Origin: a virus
IMG/VR virus record: IMGVR_UViG_3300002134_000110
DNA length: 64,000 nucleotides
Direction: 5' to 3' (one strand)
Of the stretch, positions 1,762-63,807 are shown piece by piece (the first letter of the stretch is position 1; each line of letters begins with the position of its first letter). A model generated the notes under the pieces. That model saw only the letters and a list, made by a program, of their open reading frames with translations. It was not told the DNA's origin and made no database searches. A program made the position numbers and the translations under genes.

Positions 1762-1763
1762 AC

Positions 1764-9702: not shown

Positions 9703-9713
9703 AACAAATTATT

Positions 9714-10475: not shown

Positions 10476-10476
10476 T

Positions 10477-11612: not shown

Positions 11613-11766
11613 CGATAAATCATCCGCTATTGAATGGTGGGTAGACGATATGCTTGAAGAAATAAAAGCAATAAAGAATAAGGGGGTTACTAAAAAAGAC
11701 CTCCTTTTATATCTAGACTCGTGGGAGTCAACATTAAAAACAATTAAAAATATAACAAAAGACTAA
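11605..11766 (+). CDS. hypothetical small protein (53 aa)
   Basis: Hand-translated MNNDKSSAIEWWVDDMLEEIKAIKNKGV...; its stop overlaps the nrdB ATG (TAATG). Confidence 0.4.
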   Translation: MNNDKSSAIEWWVDDMLEEIKAIKNKGVTKKDLLLYLDSWESTLKTIKNITKD

Positions 11767-12737: not shown

Positions 12738-12751
12738 TTAAATTAAATAAT

Positions 12752-12982
12752 ATGAAAGGACAAAAACAAAGTAGACAAGACCTATTAGAAAAAAGAGTAA
12801 AAGCATTAATAAACGTAGTACAACAATTGTTAAATGAAAACTCATACCTTAAAGATTTATCAGTTGGTACATTGGAAGCTGTTAAACTTATGCCAGGATA
12901 TGAAGAAGCAATACAACAATTGACTGAAAAACTTAAAGAAGAAAAAGAAACTAAATTAGATCTTGGGGATGGGCTGGAATAA
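12752..12982 (+). CDS. hypothetical coiled-coil protein (76 aa) between the RNR subunit genes
   Basis: The track start at 12728 is GTG inside the nrdB end; the first ATG is at 12752. Confidence 0.5.
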   Translation: MKGQKQSRQDLLEKRVKALINVVQQLLNENSYLKDLSVGTLEAVKLMPGYEEAIQQLTEKLKEEKETKLDLGDGLE

Positions 12983-14741
12983 TGATTGGATAAAAGGAAT
13001 TGACTACCCTGAGTGGGGGAATACAGAAGTATATAAGAAAACTATTATTGGTGGCTACCTAATACAAGATGAATCGCCAAGAAATGCATATATGAGGGTT
13101 GCATCAACTGTTGCGAAGCGTTTATACAAGCCAGAATTGACCGAAAAGTTTTTCCAGCATATATGGAAGGGGTGGCTTAATTTAGCTTCACCAGTGCTCT
13201 CTAATACTGGTACAGACAGAGGTTTACCTATATCATGCTTTGGTATTGATGTTGGTGATAGTATTGCTGATATTGGGCAGAAAAATTTAGAAATGATGCT
13301 TTTGGCTAAGCACGGAGGAGGAGTTGGTATTGGAATTAATATGATCAGAGCCGCAGGGGCTAGGATTACAGGTAATGGTACCTCGGATGGGGTTGTTCCT
13401 TTCTGTAAAATATATGATTCAACTATACTAGCAACGTCTCAAGGCTCTGTTAGAAGGGGTGCGGCAAGTGTAAATATTAGCATTGACCACAAAGACTTTG
13501 AAGATTGGCTGGAGATTAGGGAACCTAAAGGAGATGTCAATAGACAATCGCTTAATTTGCATCAATGCGCCGTTGTTGGCGATAAGTTTATGCGAAAGCT
13601 TGAAGAAGGGGATCCTGAGTCAAGAAAAAAGTGGAGCAAGTTATTGCAGAAGCGCAAAGCAACTGGAGAACCTTATATTCTCTTTAAAGGAAATACAAAC
13701 AAAGCTAACCCAGAAGCATATAAAAAAAATGGACTAAAAGTGCATATGACTAATATCTGCAGCGAAATAGCTTTGCACACAGATGAGAACCATAGTTTTG
13801 TATGTTGCTTGTCATCATTAAATCTTACAAAATATGAAGAGTGGAAAGATACTAACCTTATTTATGACGCAATTTGGTTCCTTGATGGAGTACTTGAAGA
13901 GTTTATTCAAAAGGCTAAAGGCCTTAAAGGATTTGAAAACTCAGTTCGTTCTGCGGAAAAAGGAAGAGCGCTTGGTCTTGGAGTCCTTGGGTGGCACACT
14001 TACCTCCAGCAAAATGGAATACCTTTCGAAGGGCTTCAAGCTCAGTTTGAGACTAGGAGAATATTTAGCCAGATTAAAATCGAAAGTGAAAGGGCGTCGA
14101 GAGCACTTGCCGAGGTATATGGAGAACCTCTTTGGTGTCGTGATACTGGATATAGGAATACTCACCTTAGGGCTATTGCACCTACTGTATCAAATAGTAA
14201 ACTATCTGGTAATGTGTCTCCAGGTATTGAGCCTTGGGCTGCTAATGTTTTTACGGAGCAATCTGCAAAAGGTACGTTTATTAGAAAAAATAAAGAACTT
14301 ATTAAAGTTTTAAAGAAAGCAGGAATTGATACAGAGGAAACCTGGAACAAAATACTTGAAGATGGAGGAAGTATTCAAGATATAAATAGTTTAGATGATT
14401 GGGGATATATAAATAAAAAATTAGTATATTTACCAGATACATCAGAGCAAGACATGCTAAATGGTTATGATGCCGTTAAAGATGTGTTTAAAACGTTTAA
14501 AGAAATAAACCAGTTAGAGTTAGTTAATCAAGCTGGTATACGTCAACAATATATAGACCAATCGGTCAGCTTAAATCTTGCCTTCCCAAGCATTGCTACC
14601 CCAAAGTGGATTAATCAAGTTCACTTTGAAGCATGGAAGAAAGGAGTAAAAACATTGTACTACACAAGAACAGAATCTGTGTTAAGGGGAGATATTGCCG
14701 CTAAAGCAATGGACCCTGATTGCTTATCCTGCGACGGGTAG
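12969..14741 (+). CDS. nrdA: ribonucleotide reductase large (alpha) subunit, class I, short form without an ATP-cone
   Basis: LSNTG, SCFG, NICSEI, CCLSSLNL, APTVSNS and YYTR, with a C-terminal CLSCDG cysteine pair. The track start at 12963 is TTG; the first ATG is at 12969. Confidence 0.9.
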   Translation: MGWNNDWIKGIDYPEWGNTEVYKKTIIGGYLIQDESPRNAYMRVASTVAKRLYKPELTEKFFQHIWKGWLNLASPVLSNTGTDRGLPISCFGIDVGDSIADIGQKNLEMMLLAKHGGGVGIGINMIRAAGARITGNGTSDGVVPFCKIYDSTILATSQGSVRRGAASVNISIDHKDFEDWLEIREPKGDVNRQSLNLHQCAVVGDKFMRKLEEGDPESRKKWSKLLQKRKATGEPYILFKGNTNKANPEAYKKNGLKVHMTNICSEIALHTDENHSFVCCLSSLNLTKYEEWKDTNLIYDAIWFLDGVLEEFIQKAKGLKGFENSVRSAEKGRALGLGVLGWHTYLQQNGIPFEGLQAQFETRRIFSQIKIESERASRALAEVYGEPLWCRDTGYRNTHLRAIAPTVSNSKLSGNVSPGIEPWAANVFTEQSAKGTFIRKNKELIKVLKKAGIDTEETWNKILEDGGSIQDINSLDDWGYINKKLVYLPDTSEQDMLNGYDAVKDVFKTFKEINQLELVNQAGIRQQYIDQSVSLNLAFPSIATPKWINQVHFEAWKKGVKTLYYTRTESVLRGDIAAKAMDPDCLSCDG

Positions 14742-14773
14742 TATAATATTTAGTTATTTTAGTTAGTTATATT

Positions 14774-14806
14774 AAAAAAGGGGAGGCCGTGAAGCTTCCC
14801 CTTTTT
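14774..14806. terminator. bidirectional rho-independent terminator at the convergence of the two gene arms
   Basis: AAAAAAGGGGAGGC-cgtgaa-GCTTCCCCTTTTT: an 8-bp GC-rich stem (one G-U pair) flanked by an A-run and a T-run. Confidence 0.7.
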
Positions 14807-14839
14807 CGGTTACAGGAACGATTGGGTATGGTGCCCATT

Positions 14840-14956
14840 TTATTTTGTTCCTTTCTTTTTAATAGGTACACAATTAGGTACTTTTTTAGACCCTTTCATT
14901 TTAAAACCTATTGCTTCGTAGCCTGACCAGCAGGCTTTTACTTTTTTCTCAGCCAT
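14840..14956 (-). CDS. small Cys-motif protein (38 aa)
   Basis: Hand-translated MAEKKVKACWSGYEAIGFKMKGSKKVPNCVPIKKKGTK; its ATG overlaps the upstream stop (TAATG). Last gene of the late arm. Confidence 0.45.
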   Translation of the reverse strand: MAEKKVKACWSGYEAIGFKMKGSKKVPNCVPIKKKGTK

Positions 14957-15228
14957 TACTTTCTACCTTTTCTAGTTTTACCTTTAGCTGCATCTGGCAA
15001 ATCCCCAATTTGATTACCAACTTCTTTGATAGCTGCACCTACATCGGCTAACTCTTCTTTAATTCTTCCTAAACGATGCATGGTTTGTTCTTTTACCTTA
15101 GCTGTTTTATCTTCAATAGCATCTGGTATAAAGTTTTTATCGGCATCTTTAATTTTGCCTAAGTGCATAAAGCCTAATACAATATTTACTAATACTGATA
15201 ATCCTAAAATAATAATTAATGGTTCCAT
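14956..15228 (-). CDS. membrane-anchored hypothetical protein (90 aa)
   Basis: N-terminal TM segment MEPLIIILGLSVLVNIVLGF with a charged C-terminal part; co-oriented with the late arm. Confidence 0.6.
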   Translation of the reverse strand: MEPLIIILGLSVLVNIVLGFMHLGKIKDADKNFIPDAIEDKTAKVKEQTMHRLGRIKEELADVGAAIKEVGNQIGDLPDAAKGKTRKGRK

Positions 15229-15249
15229 AGTTATTTGTTTTTATTTATT

Positions 15250-18200
15250 TTAAAAATCTAAATTTTTACTAGAAGATCTTCTTCTTCTTTTTTTAGCATT
15301 CCTAGCTTTTTCAATTTCTGGATCTTTTAATCCAATATCCCAAGAATTATAACCTAAAAATAAAGCCGTACGCTGCCATGCCTCCGCGTCTTGTTGAGTA
15401 ATAGCTTTTATATTTGAAACTTTAGTAAGAACTCTATCTAATGGAAAATTAAATGCGGCCGAAACTAAATTACCACCTATTTGATAATATGGATGATTAG
15501 GATTGTCATAGCCAATTTTGTCAAGTATTTTTTTATTAAACTTGTAACTTTCCATTGCTCCATAAATTTTCCTGGCTTTAATTCCTACAGCTGGAGATAT
15601 GTTTAATAGCTCTATAATAACTTTTCCGTTTTGCCCAGTAAATCCTTTATCATTTTCACGCATCCATGCAATCGTTGCATTTTTTAAAGTAGCTAAAGCT
15701 GCTCCGCCAATTCCAGATCCACGTAATGCGCTATCTAACATTGTATTTATAGCTCTTTCTGTTTTTTTATCTATTTTTAAATCTTCATCTTCGTCATCTC
15801 CAAATACACCTGCAAATAAAGCATTTTGTAAAAATGCAAATATAGTGTTTTGTATTGCGCCATAATAAACAAGCCTAGCCACATTAGCTTTAAAACTGCC
15901 TCTTCTATTTATTAAATCCAACATAGCTTTCTTTTGTATGCGTGTCATCTGCATAGTTGTGTTTTGGAATGCTAAGAATATTCTTCCAATAACACTAACC
16001 TGCTGGTTAGATAATAAATCCTGTCTTGAAGATTGTTGAGTGCGCTCTGCTATTTCTTGAAAATCTAAAAAAGCCTCTTCTTTGGCTTTTGCTTCAGACA
16101 TTCCCTCTTTAATATATTTTTGTTCTCTATTATATAAAAATGGCGCGCCTCCAGTTGCTACTGCAATATTATCTCCATATTTAGTAAGAGAAAAACCTTT
16201 TTCTAAAATATAAGATAATAAAGCTTTATTTTTATTTTTGCTACCCTCTAATCTAGCAACAAGCTCAGACTCATTTATATCTGTTTTTAAGCCTTGTCTA
16301 CGCTCTTTCATCCAATCAGAGTTAAATATATCAACCCAATATTTTGCGTATGTTGCGGGGCTTCCTGCAATAAATTTACCTTGAGCAAAAATATTATTAT
16401 CTTCCCAGTTTGTAAAGTTAACAATAGAAAGTTGTTGTAGCAATGCCGATCTAGTGTTAAAAAACATGGTAACCCCAACAGAACCTCTTACCCAATCTAA
16501 ATATGCGTTAGCTAATTTGTTATTACCTATTTGTCTTGCGCGCCCGTTTTTAATTCTATAAAGCATATCTTCTAATGCTGATCTTAAATCAGGACCATAA
16601 GCTGCCTCAATTTTGTTTATATTTTCTTTAGAAAATATTATATCAGCATTTGTAATAAATTTTTCAAATATTCTTGCTCTACCAATTTTACTTAATATTT
16701 CTTGCAAGTCCATTTCAATGGTACTAGCTGTCCAATCTTCTTCTGGTTTTAGCCAACTTTCTTTTTTATTTGGAACATTAATAAGATCTTCAGCAAAAGT
16801 AAGTAAAGACATATCAGAAACAACTGATTTTATTAAAGCATTTTTGTCTGTTTGACTTATTCCGGGAACATCGTACCCTAGTTTTGACCACATATAAACT
16901 CTAACCGCGTCATCATTGCTGTAGTATTTATAATCACTTTCTGCTCTTAATTTTTTTGTTATTCCTTTATTTGCTTTAATTAAATTATGATAACTTTGTT
17001 TTATTAATTGTCTTTCAGCATTTAAATTAAAGTTAGCTCTTGCTAATGGTTTAAGGAGTTTTTCATCCATAAATTTCATGTCAGCATCTCCTTGCTTGCC
17101 TGTACCATAAAAATTATATAATAAACCAGCAAAATCATCAGCTCCGGGCGGTATAAATATTTTTAATTTGCCTTTACCTTCTCCTATTTTTTTAGCGGTT
17201 GCATTAGATATTAATTCATTTTCACTAATACCTTTTTTGCGCTCAAGCATTTTATTAAATTCAATGCTCATTCCTAAAGATGCTTTTGAAGTTTCTTTAT
17301 TATTATAACTTTCTTTAGTTATAATTTCTCCATTAGTCATTCCAGGTAATCCTATTATTTGTAAATTAATATTTGACGGTAAATTTTCAAAATATCTTTG
17401 TAATACATCTAATGGTGTTGCATTAAAAAAATCAAAGCCTTTGTTCATTGAATTTTTAACATTCATTTCAGAATTTAAAGTAGTATCAAAGCTTTTTTGC
17501 GTTAAAGATGCAATCCTTAATTTTTTAATATTTTTAAATTGTTCATCGGATATTCTGCCTATAACATTTCCTATAGATAAATTAGCAAATAACAAAGCGG
17601 GTAGCATGTGCTCATAAACATATTTAATTCCTTTGCTATTTAAATTTTTAGTTATATAACTTAAATCATAAGAATTTTTTAATGGCGTGGACATATGCTT
17701 TAGCTGCCCAGCATATATTAAACCAACTGTAGTTAGATCTATTTTTAAATTAGGATCTTTTGAATTGTATAATTTTTTTACAGTAGCATGCAAATCATCG
17801 AACAAAACTTTAGACTTATTTACTTCTAATGTTCTTCCTTCTACGTTAATTTGTTTTGGGTCTGCACCAATTAAATCATCTGATCCAGGAAATGGTTTTA
17901 ATGGTGTAAATTTATAAATATTTTTATTTTTATAATATATTGATGTACCTATAATCTCTTTTGTTTTAGAATCTAAAACATTTTCAGCTTTAAAATTTTT
18001 TGTTAATATACCATCAAACGCATCTAAAAGACCTTGATTATTTCCAAACAAAGTTTTGTTAACACCACTAGCCCAAGGTTTATTAAGGGTTTTAAGCATA
18101 GAAATCATTTGCGTTTCTTTCTGGCTTTTAGTGGCATTAGGTGTTTTAAAAGAATATAAATTCCACCACTTTTGTATAAATGCTTTGCCTCGATCTTTGT

Positions 18201-21200
18201 TTTCTTGTTTATTAGGGCTAAGTCCAAAATATGGCAATCCAACCACCGCGGAAACAACTTGATCTGGATCAAAATCTTTTTTATCAATTTCATCAATAAA
18301 ATCTAAAAATTCATTTGTTGATTTGTATTTTTGGTTTATTAATTTTCTTCCAATATCAATATAATTATCTTTAATTGCTCCAACAAGATTTAATATGTTA
18401 TTTTTTTCAATGTCCGAAAACTTATTACTAAAAATAATTTTATAAGCTTCTTCAAAATTTCCATCATTTAAAGCTGTCCTTAAAACATTTTTAAATCCAT
18501 TTAAAAATAAAGCTTGTTTTTCTGGAGATAAATCTTTAAGAAATTCTATATCCGCACCTAAAGATAGTTTGGCTATACCTCTTGGCAATGTTTTTTCCAT
18601 TCCGTCTATTACTTCCTCAGCTTTTATTTCAGTATAAAGTTCTGATATATTTGCTATAGATTCAGTAAGAATTCCTCCTTCACTTAAATCTTTTAGTATA
18701 ACTTCAAAACCTTTTTCAGAAGCAATTTGCCGAGCTAAAGAAAAAATAGCATTAGTTTTTATTTTATTACGTAACGCTCCATCTTGAAAATGATAATCTA
18801 CATATTCATTTTCTTTTACCGCTTCTTTAATTTTTGGATTTCTTTTAATAAACTCAGGCCCTGAAGTCATACCCCTCCCGGCTGCATTATCTCTATCTAT
18901 TTTAAGCTTATTGCCTTTTTTATCAATCCAATCATATTTATATTCTGAAATTTTAGTAGGGGCAACCCATTCTCCGTTAACTCTTTTGAGTATGCCTTTT
19001 CTAAAAAATGGATGTTTAGATAAAAATGTAGTTGTAAAATTATTTAAAAAAGCTTCCCTATTATCTATTAAAAATTGCTCTAATCCTTTTTCTTTTATAA
19101 ATTTAATAATATCTTTTTCAGCAAAATCAGCAATATCTTTTTTTAAGTCAGCTACAAAAGGGGTTATAGTTCTATTTTTAGTTGTTTCAATATTAAATTT
19201 CTTTATATTTAAAACAATTGCTTTGTTTATGTTTTTTACAAAACTTTCATCTAACTCTTTTGTAAATTTAATTTTTTCTGATAGTAATGCTTTTTTCTGA
19301 ACGGGCTTTTCTTTAGCGATTTCTTCTGAAGCTAACATTGAATCTTCGGCGGTTTCATCGGACATTAAGTCTTTTTGTAAGGTGGCATCAGATGTAAAAC
19401 CTAAACCTCCCTTTTCTTGAGTAGATTCTACACCAATTTCTTTAGCTAAAGAATTTGCACGGGCATTCATAATAAATGACATGTACTGGTCTACGGTTTG
19501 CCCCTTGCCGGGTTTAAAATCAGCCATTTGCAGGGAAGCATTGGTTATAATTGCCCTTAAGTATTCTGTTTTTGTTACCCCCCTCAACGAGTCAGGGTTA
19601 ATTTTACTAAATAAACGCTGTGTAATTGATGTTGCTAGCTTTATCACTTGTGTGCCAAATATTGAGTCCTCAACTCTCCCCTTAACATCTTTGCCTTTAC
19701 TGTTATAAGTTAATGTTTCATTAACTAGTTTAGTTACATTGCCGTCGTATTTATCATATAGTTCTTGCAAGTTATTATATTGAGGTTTATTAGAATCATC
19801 TATTTGGTTTTGAGGTACATTATTTGCTAATGAAAGCTTTTTGTCTTGTAATTCTTCTTTGTAAAATTTAATTTTTTTACCTCTTTGAATAAAATTATTA
19901 AAAGAATTTAAATGCAAAATAACATCTTGCGCTCTTCCTACAATTTCACTTGCTCCGGCGTTAATGCCGAATGCTCCTAAAGCTTGTGATCTAATGCCGC
20001 TTATATAATTAGAAAATTGATAAGCTTTGTTTTCTAAATCGCTTTGTTTTATATAACCATTTTGTAAAAGCTCATAATAAAGATTTTGAAATTCTTCATT
20101 TAATTGTGTATCTGAAATTTTAGTGTCTTTATATTTTTGCATTCTTGCTAAAGCAAAGTCGTATACGCTTCCTTTAATTTCTTCATTTTCTTTTTTATTT
20201 TTTAAAATATTTTTTAATTCTTCAACTGCTTCGTTAAAACGTTTTTTGTCTTTAAAAATAAAGTTTTTAGAAGAAGTATATTCATGCAGTGTTTCATGTA
20301 AAGGGGTCATAGCTGCGGTGGCAGCATCAAATTCGATAGATTCCGCTTCGCTTATAGCCGCAGTTATAGCGGCAGAGTTTAATAATTTTGTTTTACCGTC
20401 GTCTGCAATTATACCATATGAGCTTTTTATCTTTCTTTTCCCTGTTTTAGGATCTATTTCAACAAACATTAAATCTTTGACTTCTGCGTCAATATCCTCA
20501 TCTGATTTTTCCCTAAAATAATCATTCTTTTTTAATTTAGCAAGTCCTTTATTAGAAAGCGCCGTTATATCAAAAGCCTCAAGTGCTATTAAATCAAAAT
20601 CATCCAACTCTAATTCAATTAAAGCATTTCCAGATGCTTGACTAAGTTTTTTATTAATTTGGTATTTTTGCCAAAGAAAAATAGATTCGGCAGATTTAAT
20701 TTCTTCTGGTACAGTTGCTTTTTCAACGGATTTTATAATTGCATTTTTTTTATTAGAAAGCCCCTGTAGTTGATCTTTTAAATTTTTTACACGTTTTCTC
20801 GTAGCTTCATCACCAATTTTAAAATTATCAGTAGAGGCTAATTGTGCTACTTCTCTATATATTTTATTTATTTTTGCATCTACATCAAATAATTCTTTTG
20901 CTTGTGACTCGCTAAAATTATCTAAGTTTGTGGCAATATATTGATTTAAAGTAGCTGCTTTTTTAAGAACATTCCCCATTTGTTCTTGAACATCTTTTTG
21001 ATTCTCTGGATTTAGAGATTCCTGAAGATTATAGTATTCTTTTAAATATTTTTTAAACAATACTTGATCCACTTTAGATTTTCCGGCATTAACTAAACTA
21101 TTGGTTAACGTCATTGAATTTATCCCGCCGCCAACTAACAAAGTTGAAAAAGTAGTACCAGCAAAAAATTCAGGCGTAAATCCGTCTAAAAGAGACACAT

Positions 21201-23409
21201 CCATTCCCATTATATATCTATCCCCTAAATTTTGAAAATATTGAGTACCCATTTCTTCTATATTTTCTACTCCAGACATAACGCTCCTGCCAATGGCTAT
21301 TCTACCTAGTTTAGGCAAAACTCCTTTTACTCCAGCCGTCGTTAAAAATCTTCTTGCAGATTTACCAATAAGTACATTACCAAATTGTTCAAACCCAGCT
21401 TCTAAACCACCATGAGCTATAGCTGAGCCTCCTGTCCTTATGAGCCCATAATCTTGTAATTCTATTTGATAATTTAATTCTTTTTTAATTTGATTAACTT
21501 CAAATTCAGTTAAATTTGTATTTTTTAATTGCTCTTGTAAAGCTATAACTACTTGCGAAGCTAATCCTTGAGCTTCTTTAATATCATTGTATTTTGTACC
21601 AGTAGAAGATATAAAAAACGTAGGAATGGTTGTTTTCCCTATTTCAGACAACGCTGTTCCTACTTTACCTAACAACCCAACGCCTTTAGCGGCAGCGCCT
21701 AAACCGCCTAATCCACTTAAAATTGTAGAAGGAGCATTATCTGCGCCTATTTCTAAAAGAACATCCATAAATGACGCCCCATATTTTTGATCCTTAAATT
21801 CTAACGGAGCCGGTATTTTTTTGCCTTCCTCTTTTATGCCTTTAGAAATTATAGACGCTTCATTTGAAATTATATCAAACACGCTTGTCGCTGAGGCGGT
21901 TGGTAATCCAAATTTAGCGCTCGAATAATTTTTATCTAAAGCAGAAAGAATATCGGCGGCTAATTTTACTGTACCAGCTACTCCTCCCACGGTAAATTCT
22001 GCGGTTCTTTGCGAAACTCTTGAAAAAAGATTATAATCATAATCCAAGGCCTCCTTCATTAGCCCCTCATCTTTTAAATTGCCTATTTTATCATAATAAG
22101 CCTCAATATCTTTACTTTGCCTTTGTTTTATATTAACTAAGTTATTTACAGAATATATTAAATCTTTATTTTTATTAAACAAATTTGTAATTTCTTCTAC
22201 TTTTTGAGCATGAAGAGCTAATAAATCTTTTGAATTAGGTTCTTTTAATAATTGTTTATTAATTTTTTGAAGCTCCGATGACAAATTATCTAACCCTGCA
22301 ACAAAAGGGGCTGCTTGTTCAGTTAAATCCTTATTTAATTTTACTAAATATTTATTATTGTCTTGTAACTCTTTTCCTACTTCTTCGGCATATTTGTTAG
22401 CTTGTTGCGGTGTTTCAAAATCAAAATTTTCATTAAAAATTCGCATATCTTCTTGCTGACCTTCCGGGAGATCGTCTATTGCGTTTCTTAATTTTCTTTT
22501 TTGAAGAGTATTTTCTGCTATTTTTTCTGCAGTATTTTGTGATTGTTCATCTGATATTTCAAATACGCCAGTTTCTTTCCAAGAAACGTAATCATCATAT
22601 TTGTTGCCTAAAATGTTTTTATAAAATTTGTCTTTATTAATATCTAGATCTACCCCAGGGGCTGGTCCTTTTGATGTTAGTACAACTTTATTTTGAAAAT
22701 CTTTTTTGTATTCTTTTTCAATAGCGTCAAGGCCAAAATAAACATTAGCGGCTTCTTCAGCTATTTCTGTTTCAGAATGGATTTTACTTTTATTATTTAT
22801 TTCGTCAAATATTTTTTTATTATTTTTTCTTTTTAAAGAAGTGTTTTTAGGGGTTCCAATAACCTCGTCAAGCTTTGTAACAATTTCTGGGTATATTATT
22901 TCAACCCTACTGCGCATACCAGCCGTTTTCTCTGTCCTTGACCTATCTCTTTGTAAACTATTTAGGTACTGATTAAGTGTTAAATTATATTGTTTTGCTG
23001 TGTTTTCAATTTCTTCAAAAGAATAGGGCGTGCCATCTATTTTTATTATTGTTTTGTCTTTTAACTCTTTTTTTTCAAAATCTGGGTCTCCTTCTTTGGT
23101 TTGAGGAAGAACCCCTAATCTACTAGCCGTAATAGGGCTTTTTTCTTGGCCATTTATTTGTACAAAGCTATTTTGTAATTCCGAAGAACCATTTTCCAAT
23201 GTGGAATCCGTACTTTGCACTTGAATTTCGGGTGCTGCAGTTCCCGCCGCAGGCGCACCCTGTCCCTGGCTTGTTTGCTTTCCCGTAGCGTCTTCAATTT
23301 TTTTTAAGTTTGGATTTTTAGCAAAAAGCTCATCTATTGTGTATCCTTTACTTGACGCAACTTGCTCTAATTGCTCGTATGAATATGTTTTGCCATTAAG
23401 TTCGTACAT
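15250..23409 (-). CDS. giant 2719-aa virion-associated protein (internal/ejection protein candidate by position)
   Basis: Uninterrupted 8.16-kb ORF at the end of the portal-capsid-tail-internal gene order. It has Gly/Ala-rich hydrophobic stretches, an HETLH motif at aa 1038-1042 and a duplicated N-terminal ~28-aa motif. Confidence 0.6.
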   Translation of the reverse strand: MYELNGKTYSYEQLEQVASSKGYTIDELFAKNPNLKKIEDATGKQTSQGQGAPAAGTAAPEIQVQSTDSTLENGSSELQNSFVQINGQEKSPITASRLGVLPQTKEGDPDFEKKELKDKTIIKIDGTPYSFEEIENTAKQYNLTLNQYLNSLQRDRSRTEKTAGMRSRVEIIYPEIVTKLDEVIGTPKNTSLKRKNNKKIFDEINNKSKIHSETEIAEEAANVYFGLDAIEKEYKKDFQNKVVLTSKGPAPGVDLDINKDKFYKNILGNKYDDYVSWKETGVFEISDEQSQNTAEKIAENTLQKRKLRNAIDDLPEGQQEDMRIFNENFDFETPQQANKYAEEVGKELQDNNKYLVKLNKDLTEQAAPFVAGLDNLSSELQKINKQLLKEPNSKDLLALHAQKVEEITNLFNKNKDLIYSVNNLVNIKQRQSKDIEAYYDKIGNLKDEGLMKEALDYDYNLFSRVSQRTAEFTVGGVAGTVKLAADILSALDKNYSSAKFGLPTASATSVFDIISNEASIISKGIKEEGKKIPAPLEFKDQKYGASFMDVLLEIGADNAPSTILSGLGGLGAAAKGVGLLGKVGTALSEIGKTTIPTFFISSTGTKYNDIKEAQGLASQVVIALQEQLKNTNLTEFEVNQIKKELNYQIELQDYGLIRTGGSAIAHGGLEAGFEQFGNVLIGKSARRFLTTAGVKGVLPKLGRIAIGRSVMSGVENIEEMGTQYFQNLGDRYIMGMDVSLLDGFTPEFFAGTTFSTLLVGGGINSMTLTNSLVNAGKSKVDQVLFKKYLKEYYNLQESLNPENQKDVQEQMGNVLKKAATLNQYIATNLDNFSESQAKELFDVDAKINKIYREVAQLASTDNFKIGDEATRKRVKNLKDQLQGLSNKKNAIIKSVEKATVPEEIKSAESIFLWQKYQINKKLSQASGNALIELELDDFDLIALEAFDITALSNKGLAKLKKNDYFREKSDEDIDAEVKDLMFVEIDPKTGKRKIKSSYGIIADDGKTKLLNSAAITAAISEAESIEFDAATAAMTPLHETLHEYTSSKNFIFKDKKRFNEAVEELKNILKNKKENEEIKGSVYDFALARMQKYKDTKISDTQLNEEFQNLYYELLQNGYIKQSDLENKAYQFSNYISGIRSQALGAFGINAGASEIVGRAQDVILHLNSFNNFIQRGKKIKFYKEELQDKKLSLANNVPQNQIDDSNKPQYNNLQELYDKYDGNVTKLVNETLTYNSKGKDVKGRVEDSIFGTQVIKLATSITQRLFSKINPDSLRGVTKTEYLRAIITNASLQMADFKPGKGQTVDQYMSFIMNARANSLAKEIGVESTQEKGGLGFTSDATLQKDLMSDETAEDSMLASEEIAKEKPVQKKALLSEKIKFTKELDESFVKNINKAIVLNIKKFNIETTKNRTITPFVADLKKDIADFAEKDIIKFIKEKGLEQFLIDNREAFLNNFTTTFLSKHPFFRKGILKRVNGEWVAPTKISEYKYDWIDKKGNKLKIDRDNAAGRGMTSGPEFIKRNPKIKEAVKENEYVDYHFQDGALRNKIKTNAIFSLARQIASEKGFEVILKDLSEGGILTESIANISELYTEIKAEEVIDGMEKTLPRGIAKLSLGADIEFLKDLSPEKQALFLNGFKNVLRTALNDGNFEEAYKIIFSNKFSDIEKNNILNLVGAIKDNYIDIGRKLINQKYKSTNEFLDFIDEIDKKDFDPDQVVSAVVGLPYFGLSPNKQENKDRGKAFIQKWWNLYSFKTPNATKSQKETQMISMLKTLNKPWASGVNKTLFGNNQGLLDAFDGILTKNFKAENVLDSKTKEIIGTSIYYKNKNIYKFTPLKPFPGSDDLIGADPKQINVEGRTLEVNKSKVLFDDLHATVKKLYNSKDPNLKIDLTTVGLIYAGQLKHMSTPLKNSYDLSYITKNLNSKGIKYVYEHMLPALLFANLSIGNVIGRISDEQFKNIKKLRIASLTQKSFDTTLNSEMNVKNSMNKGFDFFNATPLDVLQRYFENLPSNINLQIIGLPGMTNGEIITKESYNNKETSKASLGMSIEFNKMLERKKGISENELISNATAKKIGEGKGKLKIFIPPGADDFAGLLYNFYGTGKQGDADMKFMDEKLLKPLARANFNLNAERQLIKQSYHNLIKANKGITKKLRAESDYKYYSNDDAVRVYMWSKLGYDVPGISQTDKNALIKSVVSDMSLLTFAEDLINVPNKKESWLKPEEDWTASTIEMDLQEILSKIGRARIFEKFITNADIIFSKENINKIEAAYGPDLRSALEDMLYRIKNGRARQIGNNKLANAYLDWVRGSVGVTMFFNTRSALLQQLSIVNFTNWEDNNIFAQGKFIAGSPATYAKYWVDIFNSDWMKERRQGLKTDINESELVARLEGSKNKNKALLSYILEKGFSLTKYGDNIAVATGGAPFLYNREQKYIKEGMSEAKAKEEAFLDFQEIAERTQQSSRQDLLSNQQVSVIGRIFLAFQNTTMQMTRIQKKAMLDLINRRGSFKANVARLVYYGAIQNTIFAFLQNALFAGVFGDDEDEDLKIDKKTERAINTMLDSALRGSGIGGAALATLKNATIAWMRENDKGFTGQNGKVIIELLNISPAVGIKARKIYGAMESYKFNKKILDKIGYDNPNHPYYQIGGNLVSAAFNFPLDRVLTKVSNIKAITQQDAEAWQRTALFLGYNSWDIGLKDPEIEKARNAKKRRRRSSSKNLDF

Positions 23410-46495: not shown

Positions 46496-46752
46496 AGAAC
46501 AACGACTACATCCTGTAGTTTTATAATATGATAAACATTTTTTTTAATATCTATCTTGTGTCCAGCATGGCGATCATAATAAATTTTATCACCTTCTTTA
46601 ATACCAGCTGTATCATTACCAACAGAAATTACATCAGCTAATATATACCTAATATCATCTCTTTGGTTTTCAGCAAGAAGTAAACCACCTTTTGTGGTTG
46701 TCGTACCTTCTTTAACTTTTTGTATGATTAAATTACTACCTATTGCTTTCAT
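46492..46752 (-). CDS. groES: co-chaperonin GroES/Cpn10-like
   Basis: NLIIQKVKEGTTTTKGGLLLAE...ADVISVGND...IKEGDKIYYDRHAGHKIDIKKNVYHIIKLQDVVVVL follows the Cpn10 pattern; immediately downstream of GroEL. Confidence 0.65.
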   Translation of the reverse strand: MKAIGSNLIIQKVKEGTTTTKGGLLLAENQRDDIRYILADVISVGNDTAGIKEGDKIYYDRHAGHKIDIKKNVYHIIKLQDVVVVL

Positions 46753-48292
46753 TAACCCTTAAGTTATTAATTACACAATCCGTAGATAAAATAGTTGTAG
46801 CTACTGATGCTGCATTTCTTAATGCACTTTTGGTAACTAATAGAGGATCAATGATCCCGTGTTTAATCATATTAACTTTTTTGCCAGTTATCACATTTAG
46901 ACCCATTCCATCCCCCATTGCGGATTCCTTATACTCTATACCCGCATTCTCTAATATGGTCTTAAACGGCGCCTTAATAGCGTCTAGGAGAGCTTGCTCC
47001 CCTACTGACTTAGCTTTTATATTTTCCGATGCGTTTAATAAAGCAATTCCACCACCAGGTACAATACCTTCTTTGATCGCAGCTTTAGTTGCGCAGATAG
47101 CATCTTCTACCCTATCTTTCTTTTCTTTTAATTCTATTTCTGAATTAGCACCTACTTTTACTATAGCTATTTTAGCTGCTAGTCTTGCTAATCTTTTTTC
47201 AAGCTTTACTATTTCGTAAGGCTCTTTAGTTGTGACAAGTTTTTCTTTAATACCTTTTATAGTATTTTGAACCTCTTCTGAAACTTCTCCAACTTGTAAT
47301 ATTGTTTCTTCGTCTGTAGTTACACTTTTTATACAATTACCTAGGTATTGAGGATTAATTAAATCTAAATCATCTCCTAAGTCTTCGTTTATAATAGTAG
47401 CACCAGTTAGCATTGCAAGATCATCTAATGTTTCTTTTTTAGCTACACCATATGTTGGTGCATTGATAACATTAATCTTTAAATTACCTTTAACTTTATT
47501 CATTGCTAAAGTTGCAAGTACTGGTTGGTCTATGTCTGCAATTACAAGTAAAGACTTATTACCTTTTATAACAAACTCTAGCACGCTTTGAATTTGTCTA
47601 ATATTATCAATTGGTGATTCAACTAATAATACATAAGGGTTTTCTAATTCAGCAACTCTTTGACTTTTGCTTGTAACAAAATGTGAGTTCGTTAGCCCTT
47701 TGTTATATTGTACTCCGTCAACTATTTCTACTGCTGTAGTACCATCTGACGATGTTTCCATCATAACTACCCCCGTTTCATCAACTGCTCTAAAAGCATC
47801 ACCGATTAGTTTACCGAGCTCTGCATCGTTGTTTGTTGATATAGTTGCAATTTGATCTATCATATCGCCACTAACATCTACTGAAATTGACTCTAAGTAT
47901 TTAACTACTTTTTCAACAGCGTTGTCTATACCTATTTTTAAATCTCTTGAACTAATTTTATCAGCTACATTGTAAGCTTCAGTTAGTATAGAGTGCGCTA
48001 ATACAGTTGCGGTTGTTGTACCATCACCTGCTTCGCTTACGGTTTTTCTAGCAGCTTCTTTTAAAAGTGTAGCCCCCATATTTTCTACAGGATCTAATAG
48101 TATAATACTATCTGCTACTGTTACACCGTCTTTTGTTATAATTGGTCTTCCATTTCCATCTTCTAGCATCACACATTTACCGCTAGCCCCGAGCGTGGAG
48201 CTAACGGCTTTTGTGAGTTTTGTGATACCTTCAAATACTTTATCCTTAGCCTCGTTACCGAAACTTAGGTTCTTGACAATTGCGTCTGACAT
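46736..48292 (-). CDS. groEL: chaperonin GroEL/Cpn60-like (518 aa, no GGM tail)
   Basis: AGDGTTTATVLA nucleotide-binding loop, VPGGGIALL, KLEKRLARLA and an equatorial/apical/equatorial layout recognisable by eye. Confidence 0.9.
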   Translation of the reverse strand: MSDAIVKNLSFGNEAKDKVFEGITKLTKAVSSTLGASGKCVMLEDGNGRPIITKDGVTVADSIILLDPVENMGATLLKEAARKTVSEAGDGTTTATVLAHSILTEAYNVADKISSRDLKIGIDNAVEKVVKYLESISVDVSGDMIDQIATISTNNDAELGKLIGDAFRAVDETGVVMMETSSDGTTAVEIVDGVQYNKGLTNSHFVTSKSQRVAELENPYVLLVESPIDNIRQIQSVLEFVIKGNKSLLVIADIDQPVLATLAMNKVKGNLKINVINAPTYGVAKKETLDDLAMLTGATIINEDLGDDLDLINPQYLGNCIKSVTTDEETILQVGEVSEEVQNTIKGIKEKLVTTKEPYEIVKLEKRLARLAAKIAIVKVGANSEIELKEKKDRVEDAICATKAAIKEGIVPGGGIALLNASENIKAKSVGEQALLDAIKAPFKTILENAGIEYKESAMGDGMGLNVITGKKVNMIKHGIIDPLLVTKSALRNAASVATTILSTDCVINNLRVNESNR

Positions 48293-48664: not shown

Positions 48665-49651
48665 TTAAGCAGTATATGTACCACTCGATGTATAAGTTAG
48701 TATTGTATCGCTTCCATATGTTGTTACAGCAGGCGAACCTGTTGTAGTGCCTGTATAGTTTGCAGTTGGTATACGGAGTATAACTACTCCTGAACCCCCT
48801 GCCATTCCAGATGCTGACTTTCTTCCTCCGCCGCCAGATCCTTTGTTTGTTGCTCCGTTTGTGTCCACAGGCGTAGCTCCATTTGAAGCGGTTCCATTAT
48901 TACTGCCCCTTGCTGCTCCGCCACCAGCATAATATATTGAAGATCCTGTAATATTATTTAAAATACCCTCGCCTCCGTTTCCTCCAGAAGATGAAGTTGC
49001 ATTACCACCTACTGTTCCAGCTCCTCCGCCGCCTCCGCCGCCGATATAATTACTAGAAGCTGTACCTCCATTATTTCCTTGGCCAAGCGTGCCACCACCC
49101 CCAACACCCGCGTACAATGCTCCTCCACCACCTGAACCACCGTCTATACCTGCTCGAGCTGGGGTTGAATTACCAGCGCCACCTCCGCCACCGATAGAAA
49201 TAATGGGTGTTTCATTAGCTGCTTGAATAGAAGAAGACCCTCCATTGCCTCCTTCATAACCAAAGTCTTCTAATTGTACGCCAGCTGCTCCGCCTGCTCC
49301 AACCGTTATTGTATAAGACGTTGGAGGAGTTAATGAATATCCAGTTGAAGTAAGCAATCCTCCAGCTCCTCCACCTCCACTATAATATCCTGTCCGACCA
49401 CCACCACCTGAGCCGCCACCTCCAGCAACTACTAAATAGTCAACTGCATAAGGCAATGGAACAAGCGTATCCAAAGTCAACCACTCTGTGCCATCGTATG
49501 TTTCCATAACAACTTCAGTGGTGTTAAATCTAATATACCCAGCTACAGGAGATACAGGACGCTGCCCTGTTGTTCCTTTAGGAAATGCAGTTGCACCTGT
49601 AGACGAATCTAACTCTAATAAATCTGGGTGGTTTATTTTTGTAGTCGCCAT
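48665..49651 (-). CDS. glycine-rich tail fibre/spike paralogue (328 aa)
   Basis: N-terminus MATTKINHPDLLELDSSTGATAFPKGTTGQRPVSPVAGYIRFNT...YDGTEWL shared with 50047 and 51040. Long GGGG(S/A)GG tracts and a C-terminal GGSGVVILRIP. Confidence 0.7.
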   Translation of the reverse strand: MATTKINHPDLLELDSSTGATAFPKGTTGQRPVSPVAGYIRFNTTEVVMETYDGTEWLTLDTLVPLPYAVDYLVVAGGGGSGGGGRTGYYSGGGGAGGLLTSTGYSLTPPTSYTITVGAGGAAGVQLEDFGYEGGNGGSSSIQAANETPIISIGGGGGAGNSTPARAGIDGGSGGGGALYAGVGGGGTLGQGNNGGTASSNYIGGGGGGGAGTVGGNATSSSGGNGGEGILNNITGSSIYYAGGGAARGSNNGTASNGATPVDTNGATNKGSGGGGRKSASGMAGGSGVVILRIPTANYTGTTTGSPAVTTYGSDTILTYTSSGTYTA

Positions 49652-49652
49652 A

Positions 49653-50036
49653 TTACTCTTCTATAATTACTTCTTCCCAATTTAAAATTTCTTCATTCCA
49701 TTTGTATAACTTACCGTCTGTTGGATAAGGTACTGGTGAATCCCAAAGACAAGTGTCTTCGTTCAATGTCCAGCTATTAAATGGTTGAGGTGGAATAAAA
49801 GCATCTCTTGTAGAATCGTAAGTGTAACCAATACCAGCATAGTTTTTTCTAAGTACCTTAGATTGGTTTTTGCTTGGCTCGTTAGTGTTAGGGGCATAAT
49901 GCACTCCACCTCTTGTATTATAAGAAGTCTGAATCCATTGCCCTGGACTATCGTCTACGAAGTTGTTAAAAAAATCTGCTTCAGCTACAATTACCCTTGT
50001 AACTATTCCGTTTGAAACTTTTGCAAAGTGTCCCAT
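49653..50036 (-). CDS. hypothetical protein (127 aa) interleaved with the fibre paralogues
   Basis: MGHFAKVSNGIVTRVIVAEADFF...WIQTSYNTRGGVHY; chaperone-like by position. Confidence 0.5.
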   Translation of the reverse strand: MGHFAKVSNGIVTRVIVAEADFFNNFVDDSPGQWIQTSYNTRGGVHYAPNTNEPSKNQSKVLRKNYAGIGYTYDSTRDAFIPPQPFNSWTLNEDTCLWDSPVPYPTDGKLYKWNEEILNWEEVIIEE

Positions 50037-50046
50037 ATATATATAT

Positions 50047-51036
50047 TTAAATTTGAAATCTTAATATCACTATTCCTGAACCACCCGAAGCAGAAACTCC
50101 ACCTCCGTCAGATCCACTTCCACCGCCTCCACCAGTATTAGGTGTGCCGGCTACTCCATTTCTATTATTAGGTTGAAATCCACCTCTTCCACCGCCACCT
50201 AGTCCTCCAATATTTCCACTTGTACTACCAACAGGTATACCAGCGGCACCACCGCCTGCATAGTAGCCGTTATCTGCGCCAGTAGAAGTAGCTGTAGCCC
50301 ATGCGGAATACGTGTTAATGCCATTCCCCCCAGGTGTTGCTATTCCGGTTGCGCTTGGGGGTGTTCCATTGTTTCCAGCCCCACCGCCTGATCCACCTAC
50401 CCTTGAATCACCATTACCACCATCATTTCCTTGACCAGTAGTTCCGTTTCCAGCAGATCCAGATACAGGACCAGCTCCACCACCGGAACCCCCGTTGTTT
50501 CCGCTATCATTACTAGCTGCGCCGCCTGCTCCACCTCCAATAGCAACATTTGAATTAAAAGATGAAGAATCTCCATTAGAATTTACTCCACCACCTCCGC
50601 CAACAACAACTGTATAATTTCCAGTGCTTAGTTCTTGTGAAGCATAAAGTAATCCACCAGCACCTCCGCCTCCACCGCAATTAGCGGTGCCATCAGAAGA
50701 TCCCGCACCACCTCCGCCAGCTATAATTAAAGATTGAATAGTTGCCGTTCCCGTTATTCCAAAAGTTCCTCCCGTTGTAAACGTGTGATACCTATACCCG
50801 TCACTTTCAACAATAGTTCCTCCTGTAGTAATTGGTACATTTGAAACAGCATTAATCTTCCTCCACTCTGTACCATTATAGGTTTCAAGTTTTGTTTCGT
50901 CTATCTCAGAGTTATGGCGTAGTGTTCCTTCAACAGGATTAGATGGTCTTTGAGCTGTAGTACCTTTAGGTAATCCTAATGCACCAGTGTCTGAACCTAA
51001 GTCTAATAAATCGTTTGTTATTTTAGTTAATGCCAT
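50047..51036 (-). CDS. glycine-rich tail fibre/spike paralogue (329 aa)
   Basis: MALTKITNDLLDLGSDTGALGLPKGTTAQRPSNPVEGTLRHN; Gly tracts; C-terminal GGSGIVILRF. Confidence 0.7.
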   Translation of the reverse strand: MALTKITNDLLDLGSDTGALGLPKGTTAQRPSNPVEGTLRHNSEIDETKLETYNGTEWRKINAVSNVPITTGGTIVESDGYRYHTFTTGGTFGITGTATIQSLIIAGGGGAGSSDGTANCGGGGGAGGLLYASQELSTGNYTVVVGGGGGVNSNGDSSSFNSNVAIGGGAGGAASNDSGNNGGSGGGAGPVSGSAGNGTTGQGNDGGNGDSRVGGSGGGAGNNGTPPSATGIATPGGNGINTYSAWATATSTGADNGYYAGGGAAGIPVGSTSGNIGGLGGGGRGGFQPNNRNGVAGTPNTGGGGGSGSDGGGVSASGGSGIVILRFQI

Positions 51037-51039
51037 AAT

Positions 51040-52083
51040 CTATGCTGTATAAGTTCCAGAACTTGTATATTTTAATACTGTATAGCTTCCGTCAGTAGTT
51101 ACAGTTGGTGCACCAGTTGTTGTACCAGAGTATTGCGATGTTAAAAGTCTTAGTATTACTACTCCTGAACCGCCAGACCAACGAGATTGAATGTTTGCTA
51201 TGCTTCCACCGCCTCCGCCTCCGCCTCCAGTGTTTGCTTGCCCTGCGCTTCCTTCTGTAATAACTCCTCCTGTAGATACAGAATGTCTTGAGCCATTTCC
51301 TCCGCCAGATGTAGCAACACCTCCAGTAGAATCACCTCCAGTACCGCCGCCGCCGCCTGCTCTGCTTACTAAAGAACCTGTTATGTTTGAAGAAACTCCA
51401 TTTCCTCCGTTTCCTCCGTTACTTGATGAATTAGCTGGGCTGCCGCCAATAGAACCCGCTCCGCCTCCTCCTGCGGAAGAATAATTTACTGCCATTGCAA
51501 AAGCATTTCCACCAGCATAACCTTGACCAGTTGTTCCAGCAGCGCCTAAAAGAGTATTACCTCCATTTGTAGAACTACCACCGCCTCCTCCTGACCCGCC
51601 GCTTAAAGCAGGTATATAAGTTGAATTACCACCACCAGCACCACCTTGTCCTCCTCCTAAAGACTCTATTGTACTAAAAACAGAAGACGAACCAGAAGTT
51701 GTAGAGCTACCAGCTCCAATAGTTATAACATAAGAAGTACCAGGAATTAATGTAAGTGAACTTTCTGCGGCAGAACCACCTCCTGATGTTGCACCATAAG
51801 ATGTTCTAAGACCTCCTGCTCCGCCGCCACCACCAAAATATCCTGCTCCACCGCCACCACCAGCAATTACTAAGTAATCAACTAATATAGCCGGGCCTTG
51901 ACTCTTAACCTGCTTCCATTGTGTTCCGTTATAATACTCAATAACATTGTCATCGGTATTCTCACGAACCATACCAGCAACAGGAGATGAAGGCCTTTGT
52001 GCAGTAGTACCTTTAGGTAGGTTTAAACTGCTTGTGCTTTCACCAAGCGCTAATAAATCGTTTGTTACTTTTGTTAATGCCAT
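51040..52083 (-). CDS. glycine-rich tail fibre/spike paralogue (347 aa)
   Basis: MALTKVTNDLLALGESTSSLNLPKGTTAQRPSSPVAGMVRENT; Gly tracts; C-terminal GGSGVVILRL...YTSSGTYTA, the same ending as 48665. Confidence 0.7.
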   Translation of the reverse strand: MALTKVTNDLLALGESTSSLNLPKGTTAQRPSSPVAGMVRENTDDNVIEYYNGTQWKQVKSQGPAILVDYLVIAGGGGGAGYFGGGGGAGGLRTSYGATSGGGSAAESSLTLIPGTSYVITIGAGSSTTSGSSSVFSTIESLGGGQGGAGGGNSTYIPALSGGSGGGGGSSTNGGNTLLGAAGTTGQGYAGGNAFAMAVNYSSAGGGGAGSIGGSPANSSSNGGNGGNGVSSNITGSLVSRAGGGGGTGGDSTGGVATSGGGNGSRHSVSTGGVITEGSAGQANTGGGGGGGGSIANIQSRWSGGSGVVILRLLTSQYSGTTTGAPTVTTDGSYTVLKYTSSGTYTA

Positions 52084-62817: not shown

Positions 62818-62839
62818 AACTTATATAACCTGCTCAGTA

Positions 62840-62929
62840 CCTAAATATATAGCCACAACAGTCTCATTCCCTAAATATAAGGTGGCAACCACTTCATTTC
62901 CTAAATTAATAGCCATATTTCAATGTTTT
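62840..62929. repeat. three direct repeats with an exact 30-bp period (CCTAAAT at 62840, 62870, 62900)
   Basis: CCTAAATATATAGCCACAAC.. / CCTAAATATAAGGTGGCAAC.. / CCTAAATTAATAGCCATATT... On the late-gene strand each unit ends in (T)ATATTTAGG or ATTAATTTAGG. The nearest unit is 22 nt from the ATG at 62817. Confidence 0.8.
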
Positions 62930-63351
62930 GTATACTATATATACTTACACAACAACCCCACAATTTACACCATAGACATAAAGTGGGACATTAGCCCCCT
63001 ACTATTTATATTAACACCCTAACGTCGCACTTTTACACCGTACCTTATATAATACGCGTAGCGTTTTTTAAAAAAAAATTTATAATTTTTACCTTTTTTA
63101 TATAAAACAGCCAGGTGGAAAAAAAATTGTTGTGAATATTGAGGTGTGGTATAACACCTATATTTTACGGTGCGGTACCGAAAAGGTTTTGCGTTTCGTT
63201 TTCACCGGGTCCCCCGTTTTCCTGACGTTTTGGCGTTATCGTTTTGCCTTTCGGTGGGTTTTCCGTGCACGTTTGGGGTATTCTATTTTGGCCTACTGCC
63301 GTTGCGATCGGTACACCGTTTGAGTTGTCGTTTCGGTATCGGTAATGGTCT

Positions 63352-63398
63352 GACCTCACGGCTTCTGCCCGAGCAAACCTCACGTCATTCTTCCGAGC
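63352..63398 (+). repeat. tandem pair of 23-nt repeats R1-R2
   Basis: GACCTCACGGCTTCTGCCCGAGC (63352-63374) and AACCTCACGTCATTCTTCCGAGC (63376-63398). Confidence 0.8.
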
Positions 63399-63400
63399 GA

Positions 63401-63518
63401 TCGGTATCGGTGTCGGTAACGGTACGGTATCGGTAACGTCAACGGTAACGTCAACGGTAACGGTGCTGGTAACGAATCGGGATCGGGATCGGTGCCGGTG
63501 TTGGTGCCGGTATCGGCA
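63401..63518 (+). repeat. degenerate hexamer-period array (about 20 units of NCGGTR)
   Basis: tcggta tcggtg tcggta acggta cggta tcggta acgtca acggta acgtca acggta acggtg ctggta acgaa tcggga tcggga tcggtg ccggtg ttggtg ccggta tcggc. Confidence 0.8.
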
Positions 63519-63542
63519 GACCTCACGGTCCTTATTGCGAGC
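63519..63542 (+). repeat. third copy (R3) of the ACCTCACG...CGAGC repeat
   Basis: GACCTCACGGTCCTTATTGCGAGC closes the hexamer array. Confidence 0.8.
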
Positions 63543-63566
63543 ATTCTCTTAGCATTTTTAAAAGGG

Positions 63567-63595
63567 TTGATACGAGTCTCTATTGATAATATATA
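63567..63595 (+). promoter_or_regulatory. early promoter module copy 3 (TTGATA-17 nt-TATATA)
   Basis: TTGATACGAgtctctaTTGATAATATATATGTAA aligned with copies 1, 2 and 4. Confidence 0.55.
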
Positions 63596-63638
63596 TGTAA
63601 ATAAAAAATAATAATAATAATAATTAAATACTACTACT

Positions 63639-63755: not shown

Positions 63756-63784
63756 TTGACACGAGTTCACTTTGATAATATAAA
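63756..63784 (+). promoter_or_regulatory. early promoter module copy 4 (TTGACA-17 nt-TATAAA)
   Basis: TTGACACGAgttcactTTGATAATATAAATGTAAC: consensus -35, 17-nt spacer, near-consensus -10. It lies 24 nt upstream of the ATG at 63808, the same geometry as copy 1. Confidence 0.65.
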
Positions 63785-63807
63785 TGTAACTAATAAAAAT
63801 TATACTT

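Follow-up and report, generated by a model that had tools for sequence, protein, structure and literature searches.

We analysed a 64,000-nt stretch of DNA (hereafter the window; IMG/VR record IMGVR_UViG_3300002134_000110) that represents most of the circularly mapped genome, about 65.7 kb, of a podovirus. The main divergent non-coding region of this phage contains a conspicuous repeat cluster (63352-63542), in which three copies of a long repeat, R, accompany a run of about 20 degenerate NCGGTR hexamers. With moderate confidence, we favour the view that R acts upstream of the early promoters as a control element, and that the hexamers form a hypervariable tandem repeat that arose by expansion within the spacer. 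The cluster itself is genuine and withstands statistical testing, and its most eye-catching part, the array, is the least conserved. Both kinds of element, promoter-upstream sites and variable-number tandem repeats (VNTRs), are already known; here they occur in an uncharacterised phage group.

The three copies, R1 (63353-63374, ACCTCACGGCTTCTGCCCGAGC; ACCTCAC-N10-CGAGC), R2 (63377-63398, ACCTCACGTCATTCTTCCGAGC) and R3 (63520-63542, ACCTCACGGTCCTTATTGCGAGC), all lie on the + strand within 190 nt. Exact matches to the motif ACCTCAC-N10/11-CGAGC number three, against 0.0024 expected in 64 kb on both strands, and ACCTCAC occurs only once elsewhere in the window. A preliminary description of this DNA had placed the three long repeats correctly, to within 1 nt. 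It had also reported two tandem 23-nt repeats; the distal copies R1 and R2 are indeed in tandem, but they are 22 nt long, follow each other at a 24-nt pitch and are 73% identical, with the likeness concentrated in the two arms. R3, the promoter-proximal copy, is separated from this pair by 143 nt and ends, as had been noted, 24 nt before the -35 hexamer TTGATA (63567-63572) of early promoter 1, the 'copy 3' of that description.

Relatives were retrieved by exact-protein look-ups of an 89-aa gene and of the window's first open reading frame (ORF), from an IMG/VR set and by a metagenome scan for the tandem R pair; all of them are metagenomic contigs (L numbers). Scans of IMG/VR for the tandem pair returned nothing, or one chance match in a coding region. 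R was found in four lineages: that of the window, L044 with L046-L049, L052/L058/L061 with L060, and L062/L063. Its proximal copies, of which 21 stand 54-68 nt before the GATAATATA core of the early promoters, keep a nearly fixed distance, which is 61-65 nt in 16 cases, 54-55 nt in 4 and 59 or 68 nt in 3 outliers; the 54-55 nt cluster lies about one helical turn closer to the promoter core. R3 itself stands 65 nt from GATAATATA, and its equivalents in L001, L005, L046-L049, L052, L058, L060 and L061 are found at 61-65 nt. The element recurs at several promoters of one genome, preceding five successive promoters in L062, at 54-68 nt, and both P1 and P2 in L046. Between lineages, the arms are 100% conserved, whereas the spacer, constant in length, matches at only 4/10 and 6/10 bases (6/10 for R2 against the L046 lineage, with identical arms). 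The tandem R1-R2 pair is retained in L044 and L046-L049.

R forms no conserved hairpin: DNA folding energies range from 0 to -2.8 kcal/mol, inside the shuffle range, which rules out a hairpin or cruciform in the style of the N4 promoters, and the arms ACCTCAC and CGAGC are not palindromic. Conserved arms, a free spacer, the lack of a hairpin and a near-fixed distance to the promoter are together the signature of a site recognised by a protein as duplex DNA. The best-supported reading of these comparisons is that R, a putative protein-recognition site, serves the early promoters as an upstream control element. R3, centred at about -71 relative to a start site predicted near 63602 and lying about 46 nt upstream of the -35 hexamer, would most likely be recognised in duplex form by a regulator of early transcription encoded by the phage or the host. 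The additional distal copies, R1 and R2, may be auxiliary sites or what is left of duplicated R-promoter units. In more distant relatives, the corresponding position is taken by a different box, GTATAGCA, suggesting that upstream elements are lineage-specific accessories of a shared promoter core.

The preliminary description had nominated two binders for the cluster, and both genes exist, one encoding a DnaA domain IV protein (2881-3390, Pfam 3e-12) and the other a weak helix-turn-helix (HTH) protein (3804-4463). They lie about 5 kb from the site on the inferred 65.7-kb circular map, and nothing ties them to it. Pfam scans of 20 small proteins detected no DNA-binding domain.

The hexamer array (63400-63516, + strand) comprises about 20 NCGGTR units; 17 are hexamers and 3 are pentamers, and the final unit is cut short. 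Tandem Repeats Finder (TRF) describes these 117 nt as 19.8 copies of period 6, with 69% matches and 3% indels, and detects within them CGGTAACGTCAA repeated 2.7 times at 100%. The period-6 spectral power of 7.9 lies above all 1000 shuffles (mean 0.74, maximum 2.9), and the period-6 z-score of the whole island is 15. The 6-nt periodicity had been called strict; the period is confirmed but not the strictness, as two 5-nt units (acggt, acgaa) shift the register. CGGT occurs 19 times on the + strand and 3 times on the - strand. Directly upstream of R1 stands a mini-array of three hexamers (63328-63350, + strand; tcgttt cggtat cggtaa tggtc) that forms repeat family D1 with the main array. R copies thus do bracket the array, as had been stated, yet hexamers bracket R1-R2 equally.

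The length of this array varies widely. Among contigs that are 96-99% identical in their flanks, the R2-R3 segment measures 117, 94, 134, 117, 88, 23 and 94 nt, and the R copies remain unchanged despite these differences. The observed length differences, of 6, 17, 23 and 94 nt, preserve neither reading frame nor helical phase; 5- and 6-nt units coexist, and some alleles also carry substitutions. Short head-to-tail units with a copy number that is polymorphic among near-identical genomes are what defines a VNTR.

Sister lineages do without the array altogether. L046-L049 possess R1-R2 and a partial third copy, reduced to the ACCTCAC arm, and a constant, non-periodic 96-nt spacer replaces the array. 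In L052, L058 and L061, which come from three samples, and in L060, the proximal R and the promoter are kept, as are a conserved box and a CGTT tract further upstream (see below), but the R1-R2-array block is absent and about 20 nt stand in place of window positions 63334-63519. The proposal that the array is an iteron or centromere-like site is not supported by this comparison: it spans 23-134 nt in near-identical contigs and is missing from L046-L049, L052, L058, L060 and L061. The wider suggestion of a site for nucleoprotein assembly holds for R, given its arms, its free spacer and its near-fixed promoter distance in four lineages. As for the architecture as a whole, absence of the array from sister lineages comes close to the outcome that the preliminary description itself had named as arguing against function, namely that close relatives lack comparable arrays, a verdict softened by the non-homologous arrays of L047 and L028. 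Judged by these alleles, neither the exact sequence nor the length of the array appears to be required, and it looks like a fast-evolving tandem repeat rather than an essential origin or centromere.

L060 probably represents the unexpanded state of the locus. In this contig, gtcgttatcggtag / gtcgtttacgttgtcgttatcggtag directly precedes the single R and continues as gtcgtttacgttgtcgttatcggtag-ACCTCACGG, suggesting that the window array grew from terminal TCGGTA-like units of the older CGTT tract. The array would accordingly represent a lineage-specific expansion of the last units of a one-strand CGTT/CGGT tract that occupies the interval bounded by the conserved box and the first early promoter; replication slippage or unequal recombination presumably drove this expansion. 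Once formed, it may at most alter the spacing between distal and proximal R or add binding units of low specificity.

Other units have undergone comparable expansions. L028 carries nine copies of TCCTG (P<0.002) at the same relative position. In L047 (331-551), a degenerate, GGTR-rich array of the GACCAGGTGAT type, about 115 nt long, separates two R copies upstream of the second early promoter; the second of these copies is near-identical to the R2 of that lineage, suggesting recombination between R copies. Most other relatives show no repeated 5-mer at the array position, and several display a 10-nt compositional periodicity instead. The independent expansions in L028 and L047 indicate that the place is prone to expansion, though no particular array is maintained.

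Several observations weigh against reading R as the control element and the array as a dispensable expansion. The 17- and 23-nt indels are not multiples of 6, so that simple slippage is not a full account of the array. L008, which has the shortest allele, is a low-coverage contig in which the array could have collapsed during assembly, and the viability of array-less variants is assumed, the relatives being metagenomic contigs. Within the units, the G at position 3 is invariant and the C at position 2 and the G at position 4 are 85-90% conserved, which could mean constraint and not just recent amplification. In both lineages R has GGTR-rich tracts beside it, upstream of R1 in L046 and separating R copies in L047, which hints that G/T-rich repeats beside R are favoured and not merely tolerated. 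Lastly, no R-binding protein was found: a comparison of the early genes of lineages with and without R yielded no candidate, and was uninformative because the early genes are mosaic.

One alternative is that the array is a cooperative platform. A small phage protein would polymerise along the contiguous 6-bp CGGT units, in the way that ribbon-helix-helix (RHH) proteins assemble on unspaced heptads or hexamers, with the R elements as nucleation points or boundaries. It would silence or activate the first early promoter, to a degree tuned by copy number. The 20 contiguous units with their conserved CGG(T) core, variable edge positions and single orientation fit this proposal, as do the analogous arrays of other units in the same promoter region of L028 and between the R copies of L047. 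There is also a precedent, the omega protein of pSM19035, whose target promoters carry 7-10 unspaced 7-bp repeats and which requires 4 or more of them in a row (PMC9499535, PMC2441792). By contrast, the array is absent from sister lineages that share both the promoter and the proximal R, and it varies from 23 to 134 nt without conservation of phase. It also does not overlap the promoter, ending at 63516, 51 nt before the -35 hexamer begins at 63567, and PHROGs or Pfam scans of about 40 proteins identified no RHH, Arc, MetJ, ParB-like or ParA family member. We therefore regard a cooperative platform as unlikely, though credible.

A different function is suggested by the setting of the island. 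Late genes run leftward from 62916 to 15250, and early and middle genes run rightward from about 63600 to the window end and then from position 1 to about 15000; a divergent non-coding region of 722 nt (62917-63638) separates the two units. Within it lies a G+C-rich island of about 400 nt (63150-63545) with 46-58% G+C, flanked by DNA of 26% and of 13-19% G+C. T greatly exceeds A on the strand shown, with an AT skew down to -0.71. At the left edge of the island is a box (63192-63216, + strand; CGTTTCGTTTTCACCGGGTCCCCCG, core CCGGGTCCCCC at 63205-63215) that is conserved family-wide: single-copy in the window, it occurs with at most 3 mismatches in 21/27 IMG/VR relatives, several of these being incomplete contigs, and also in L044, L046-L049, L052 and L058-L063. 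A one-strand CGTTT/CGTT tract (63170-63345, + strand; T far in excess of A, 46-55% G+C) covers the left half. CGTTT occurs 8 times on the + strand and never on the - strand, which makes this the window's densest 180-nt bin for that motif; the period-6 power of the tract is 4.5, and the one-strand, 6-nt-biased CGTT/CGGT pattern covers the island leftward to about 63170. The tract is kept in kind in sister lineages, with blocks GTTTGGCGTT and GTTTTGCCTTT conserved against L046/L049. Box and CGTTT tract are conserved far beyond the lineages that possess R or the array, and this left half, beside its A/T runs, is a candidate for an origin, a pac site or another DNA-level signal.

The island as a whole could be a site of DNA transactions, either a replication origin or a region adjacent to packaging or a terminus, in which an initiator or terminase would act on the box and the CGTT/CGGT repeats beside A/T-rich DNA that unwinds, and the array would correspond to the short repeats beside the T7 terminal repeat. 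We consider this rather unlikely. The A/T-rich flanks, the position in the main divergent region and the family-wide, single-copy box speak for it, and the region coincides with the minimum of the cumulative GC skew, although that skew is confounded by transcription direction. The phage encodes a primase-helicase besides the DnaA domain IV protein; no DNA polymerase gene was recognised among the proteins scanned. T7 offers a parallel: about 12 CCTAAAG repeats, arranged with a 13-nt period, separate its terminal repeat from the early promoters. On the other hand, the R1-R2-array block is missing in four related contigs and so is not an essential core, and R recurs at several promoters of one genome, where an ori or pac site would be unique. 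The island contains no DnaA-box cluster, the matches being below shuffle expectation, and the replication-gene region (1-15300) holds no other convincing iteron-like cluster.

Nor do the contig ends support a physical genome end at the island: many contigs stop nearby, but at scattered positions. The breaks are better explained by extreme A+T content, an (AAT)n microsatellite and the mosaic early region. The microsatellite, (AAT)6 at 63607-63624, lies in the leader of the first early gene and is three units longer in L001; together with the local 13-19% G+C, it is the probable reason why four independent assemblies stop at 63542-63573.

A combination of these proposals, which we judge distinctly unlikely, would make the CGTT/CGGT tract and the array one lattice for a small protein that reads a 6-bp register in one strand orientation. 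R would nucleate or bound the lattice, and unit number would act as a 'contingency locus' that tunes early-promoter output or origin firing.

Finally, the island could be expressed: it might give rise to a structured non-coding RNA or leader, or contain a short coding sequence, remnant or active, with Gly-X (GGT NNN) repeats. It is a G+C-rich segment inside an A+T-rich genome, ORFs of 54-88 codons span it, and GGT is a glycine codon. However, RNA folding gives z = -0.13 for the + strand and -0.08 for the - strand, and no relevant Rfam match was obtained at E<=10; these near-zero scores and the lack of a match rule out a structured RNA. The 17- and 23-nt allele differences and the internal 5-nt units break any reading frame, and neither blastn nor tblastx finds similarity to the window genes, which rules out Gly-X coding or a gene relic. 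Nor is any promoter directed into the island. Expression of the island is effectively refuted.

Early promoter 1 (63567-63606, + strand), downstream of R3, combines TTGATA with a 17-nt spacer, TATATA (63590-63595) and ACGA..TTGATAATATATATGTAA. Between R3 and its -35 hexamer, a TTAGCA box and an A/T-rich, UP-like stretch (63549-63566, + strand; TTTTTAAAAGGG) align with the GTATAGCA-TTTTTAC box of relatives. The promoter family has four copies in the window (556-595, 1764-1800, 63567-63606 and 63756-63795), and its pattern, (C)TTAGCA/TTGAyACGA-N9-TTGATAATATAWATGTAAC, reads as TTGACA, a 17-nt spacer and TATAAA (TTGAyA/TATAWA). Relatives carry 5-7 copies per locus within 2-3 kb, often after a TGCTATAC/GTATAGCA box. 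These early promoters look host-type and would be used by the host RNA polymerase. The RNA polymerase of Cellulophaga is reported to transcribe sigma70-consensus promoters, and the middle promoters of phi14:2 contain -35/-10-like blocks (bioRxiv 10.1101/2020.03.07.982082).

The control region is bounded on the left by a leftward module (62985-63031, - strand), in which inverted arms, GTGACAtTAG ... CTAAyGTCGCAC, surround a directional core, GTTAATATAAATAGTA. The core at 62985 is directed left into the late operon; in a second copy (3767-3812) it is inverted and directed right into the HTH and sigma-like genes. The module is conserved in L046/L049, and further copies occur in the early regions of L015, L020, L029 and L034. 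It is probably a middle/late promoter, perhaps one for a phage sigma factor. The 30-nt repeats (x3) at 62821-62916 were excluded as late promoters, as they make up the coding sequence of a conserved 31-aa ORF. This ORF (- strand; MAINLGNEVVATLYLGNETVVAIYLGTEQVI), called as a gene, is the first of the late operon and comprises three decapeptide repeats; its protein is conserved with synonymous changes in L001, L044, L052 and L062. Between the A/T runs and the island, a hairpin (AGGTGTGGTATAACACCT, 63142-63168, + strand) followed by a T-rich run resembles a terminator and is partly conserved in L046/L049.

The phage belongs to a group of uncultured podoviruses of roughly 60-66 kb, whose hosts are probably Flavobacteriia. 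The relatives were mainly binned with Bacteroidota metagenome-assembled genomes (MAGs), and the large terminase (TerL) is 62% identical to that of uncultured MW202828.1 and 44% identical to those of Flavobacterium and Cellulophaga phages. A DNA search among cultured phages gave no match, and the island, the conserved box and R were all absent from MW202828.1 and from the Flavobacterium elemo phages. The genome is A+T-rich, with about 32% G+C, and contig L052 joins an 89-aa late gene to window ORF 5-205. Its early and middle genes encode, besides the DnaA domain IV and weak HTH proteins, a sigma70-family protein, ERF, an exonuclease, the primase-helicase, ThyA and RNR. The sigma70-family protein (4420-5181, + strand) contains regions 2 and 4, and a GroEL-like chaperonin is encoded at 46736-48292 (- strand). 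A 2719-aa protein (15250-23409, - strand) has no PHROG, Pfam or PDB-sequence match. Tail-fibre-like genes at 49000-52000 reach 44-46% G+C against the genome mean of about 32%, and the fibre genes that occupy about 14 kb from GroEL to the start of the late operon lack a counterpart in MW202828.1, which suggests a horizontally acquired module. Among the relatives, L065 and L078 lie on one MAG contig of 117 kb (CBDICL010000005.1), on which two differing terminase relatives (79% and 74% identity) are separated by 63.1 kb, roughly the length of one genome; this contig may combine two related phages in a concatemer-like or chimeric assembly.

Taken together, these results provide a first regulatory description for this uncultured group, comprising an early-promoter family, R, a family-wide box and a hypervariable repeat of potential use for telling strains apart in Baltic and freshwater viromes. 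They also free the hexamer array from annotation as an origin or centromere, a label that is tempting but lacks support, and shift attention to the elements that are conserved, R and the box together with the CGTT tract. Should the array turn out to tune early expression, it would be a rare case of repeat number controlling the first transcription step of a phage.

Among known systems, iteron origins, with 17-22-bp direct repeats at a pitch of about 22 bp and an A/T-rich neighbour, recall R1-R2, which are 22 nt long, have a 24-nt pitch and lie near A/T-rich DNA. However, there are only two tandem copies where iteron origins have three or more, no initiator gene is adjacent, and R is reused at several promoters. 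The hexamers are far shorter than iterons, and an iteron origin is conserved and indispensable, whereas the R1-R2-array block is dispensable, being absent in L052, L058, L061 and L060. The left-end array of T7 (nt 175-345), whose anatomy we verified directly, resembles the hexamer array in placing about 12 short motifs of one orientation before strong, host-type early promoters in a podovirus. It differs in its 13-nt period and 7-nt motif, its position next to a known genome end and its right-end counterpart, while the array described here has period 6 and is polymorphic. A literature search on T7 short-repeat nomenclature and on phage hexamer repeats found nothing usable.

The heptads bound by omega, an RHH ParB, at PcopS, Pdelta and Pomega of pSM19035 are likewise unspaced, very short, non-palindromic repeats beside promoters (7-10 x 7 bp, compared with about 20 x 6 bp). 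These heptads are conserved, lie across the promoters of the operons that encode their binder, and function together with ParA (PMC9499535, PMC2441792). RHH operators and centromeres contain 4 or more 6-7-bp repeats in a contiguous, unspaced row, and the array, with about 20 units, is of this form. By contrast, it stops 51 nt short of the -35 hexamer without overlapping the promoter, is neither conserved nor maintained, and has no cognate RHH or ParA gene among the roughly 40 proteins scanned.

The closest parallels are found elsewhere, and they differ for the two parts of the cluster. The array resembles the VNTRs of bacterial and phage intergenic regions, of the minisatellite or contingency kind, in its short head-to-tail units, its variable copy number among near-identical genomes, its presence or absence between close lineages and its location upstream of a promoter. 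It departs from them in its degenerate units (69% matches) and in some indels that are not unit multiples, and the early-promoter control region of a phage is an unusual location. For R, the parallel is with activator or operator sites at fixed helical positions upstream of promoters, such as the class I CRP sites near -61.5 and -71.5. R differs from these in its non-palindromic arms and in the two orphan tandem copies 115-160 nt upstream; it shares with them conserved arms around a free spacer, a centre at about -71, a second cluster about one helical turn closer to the promoter, and recurrence at several promoters.

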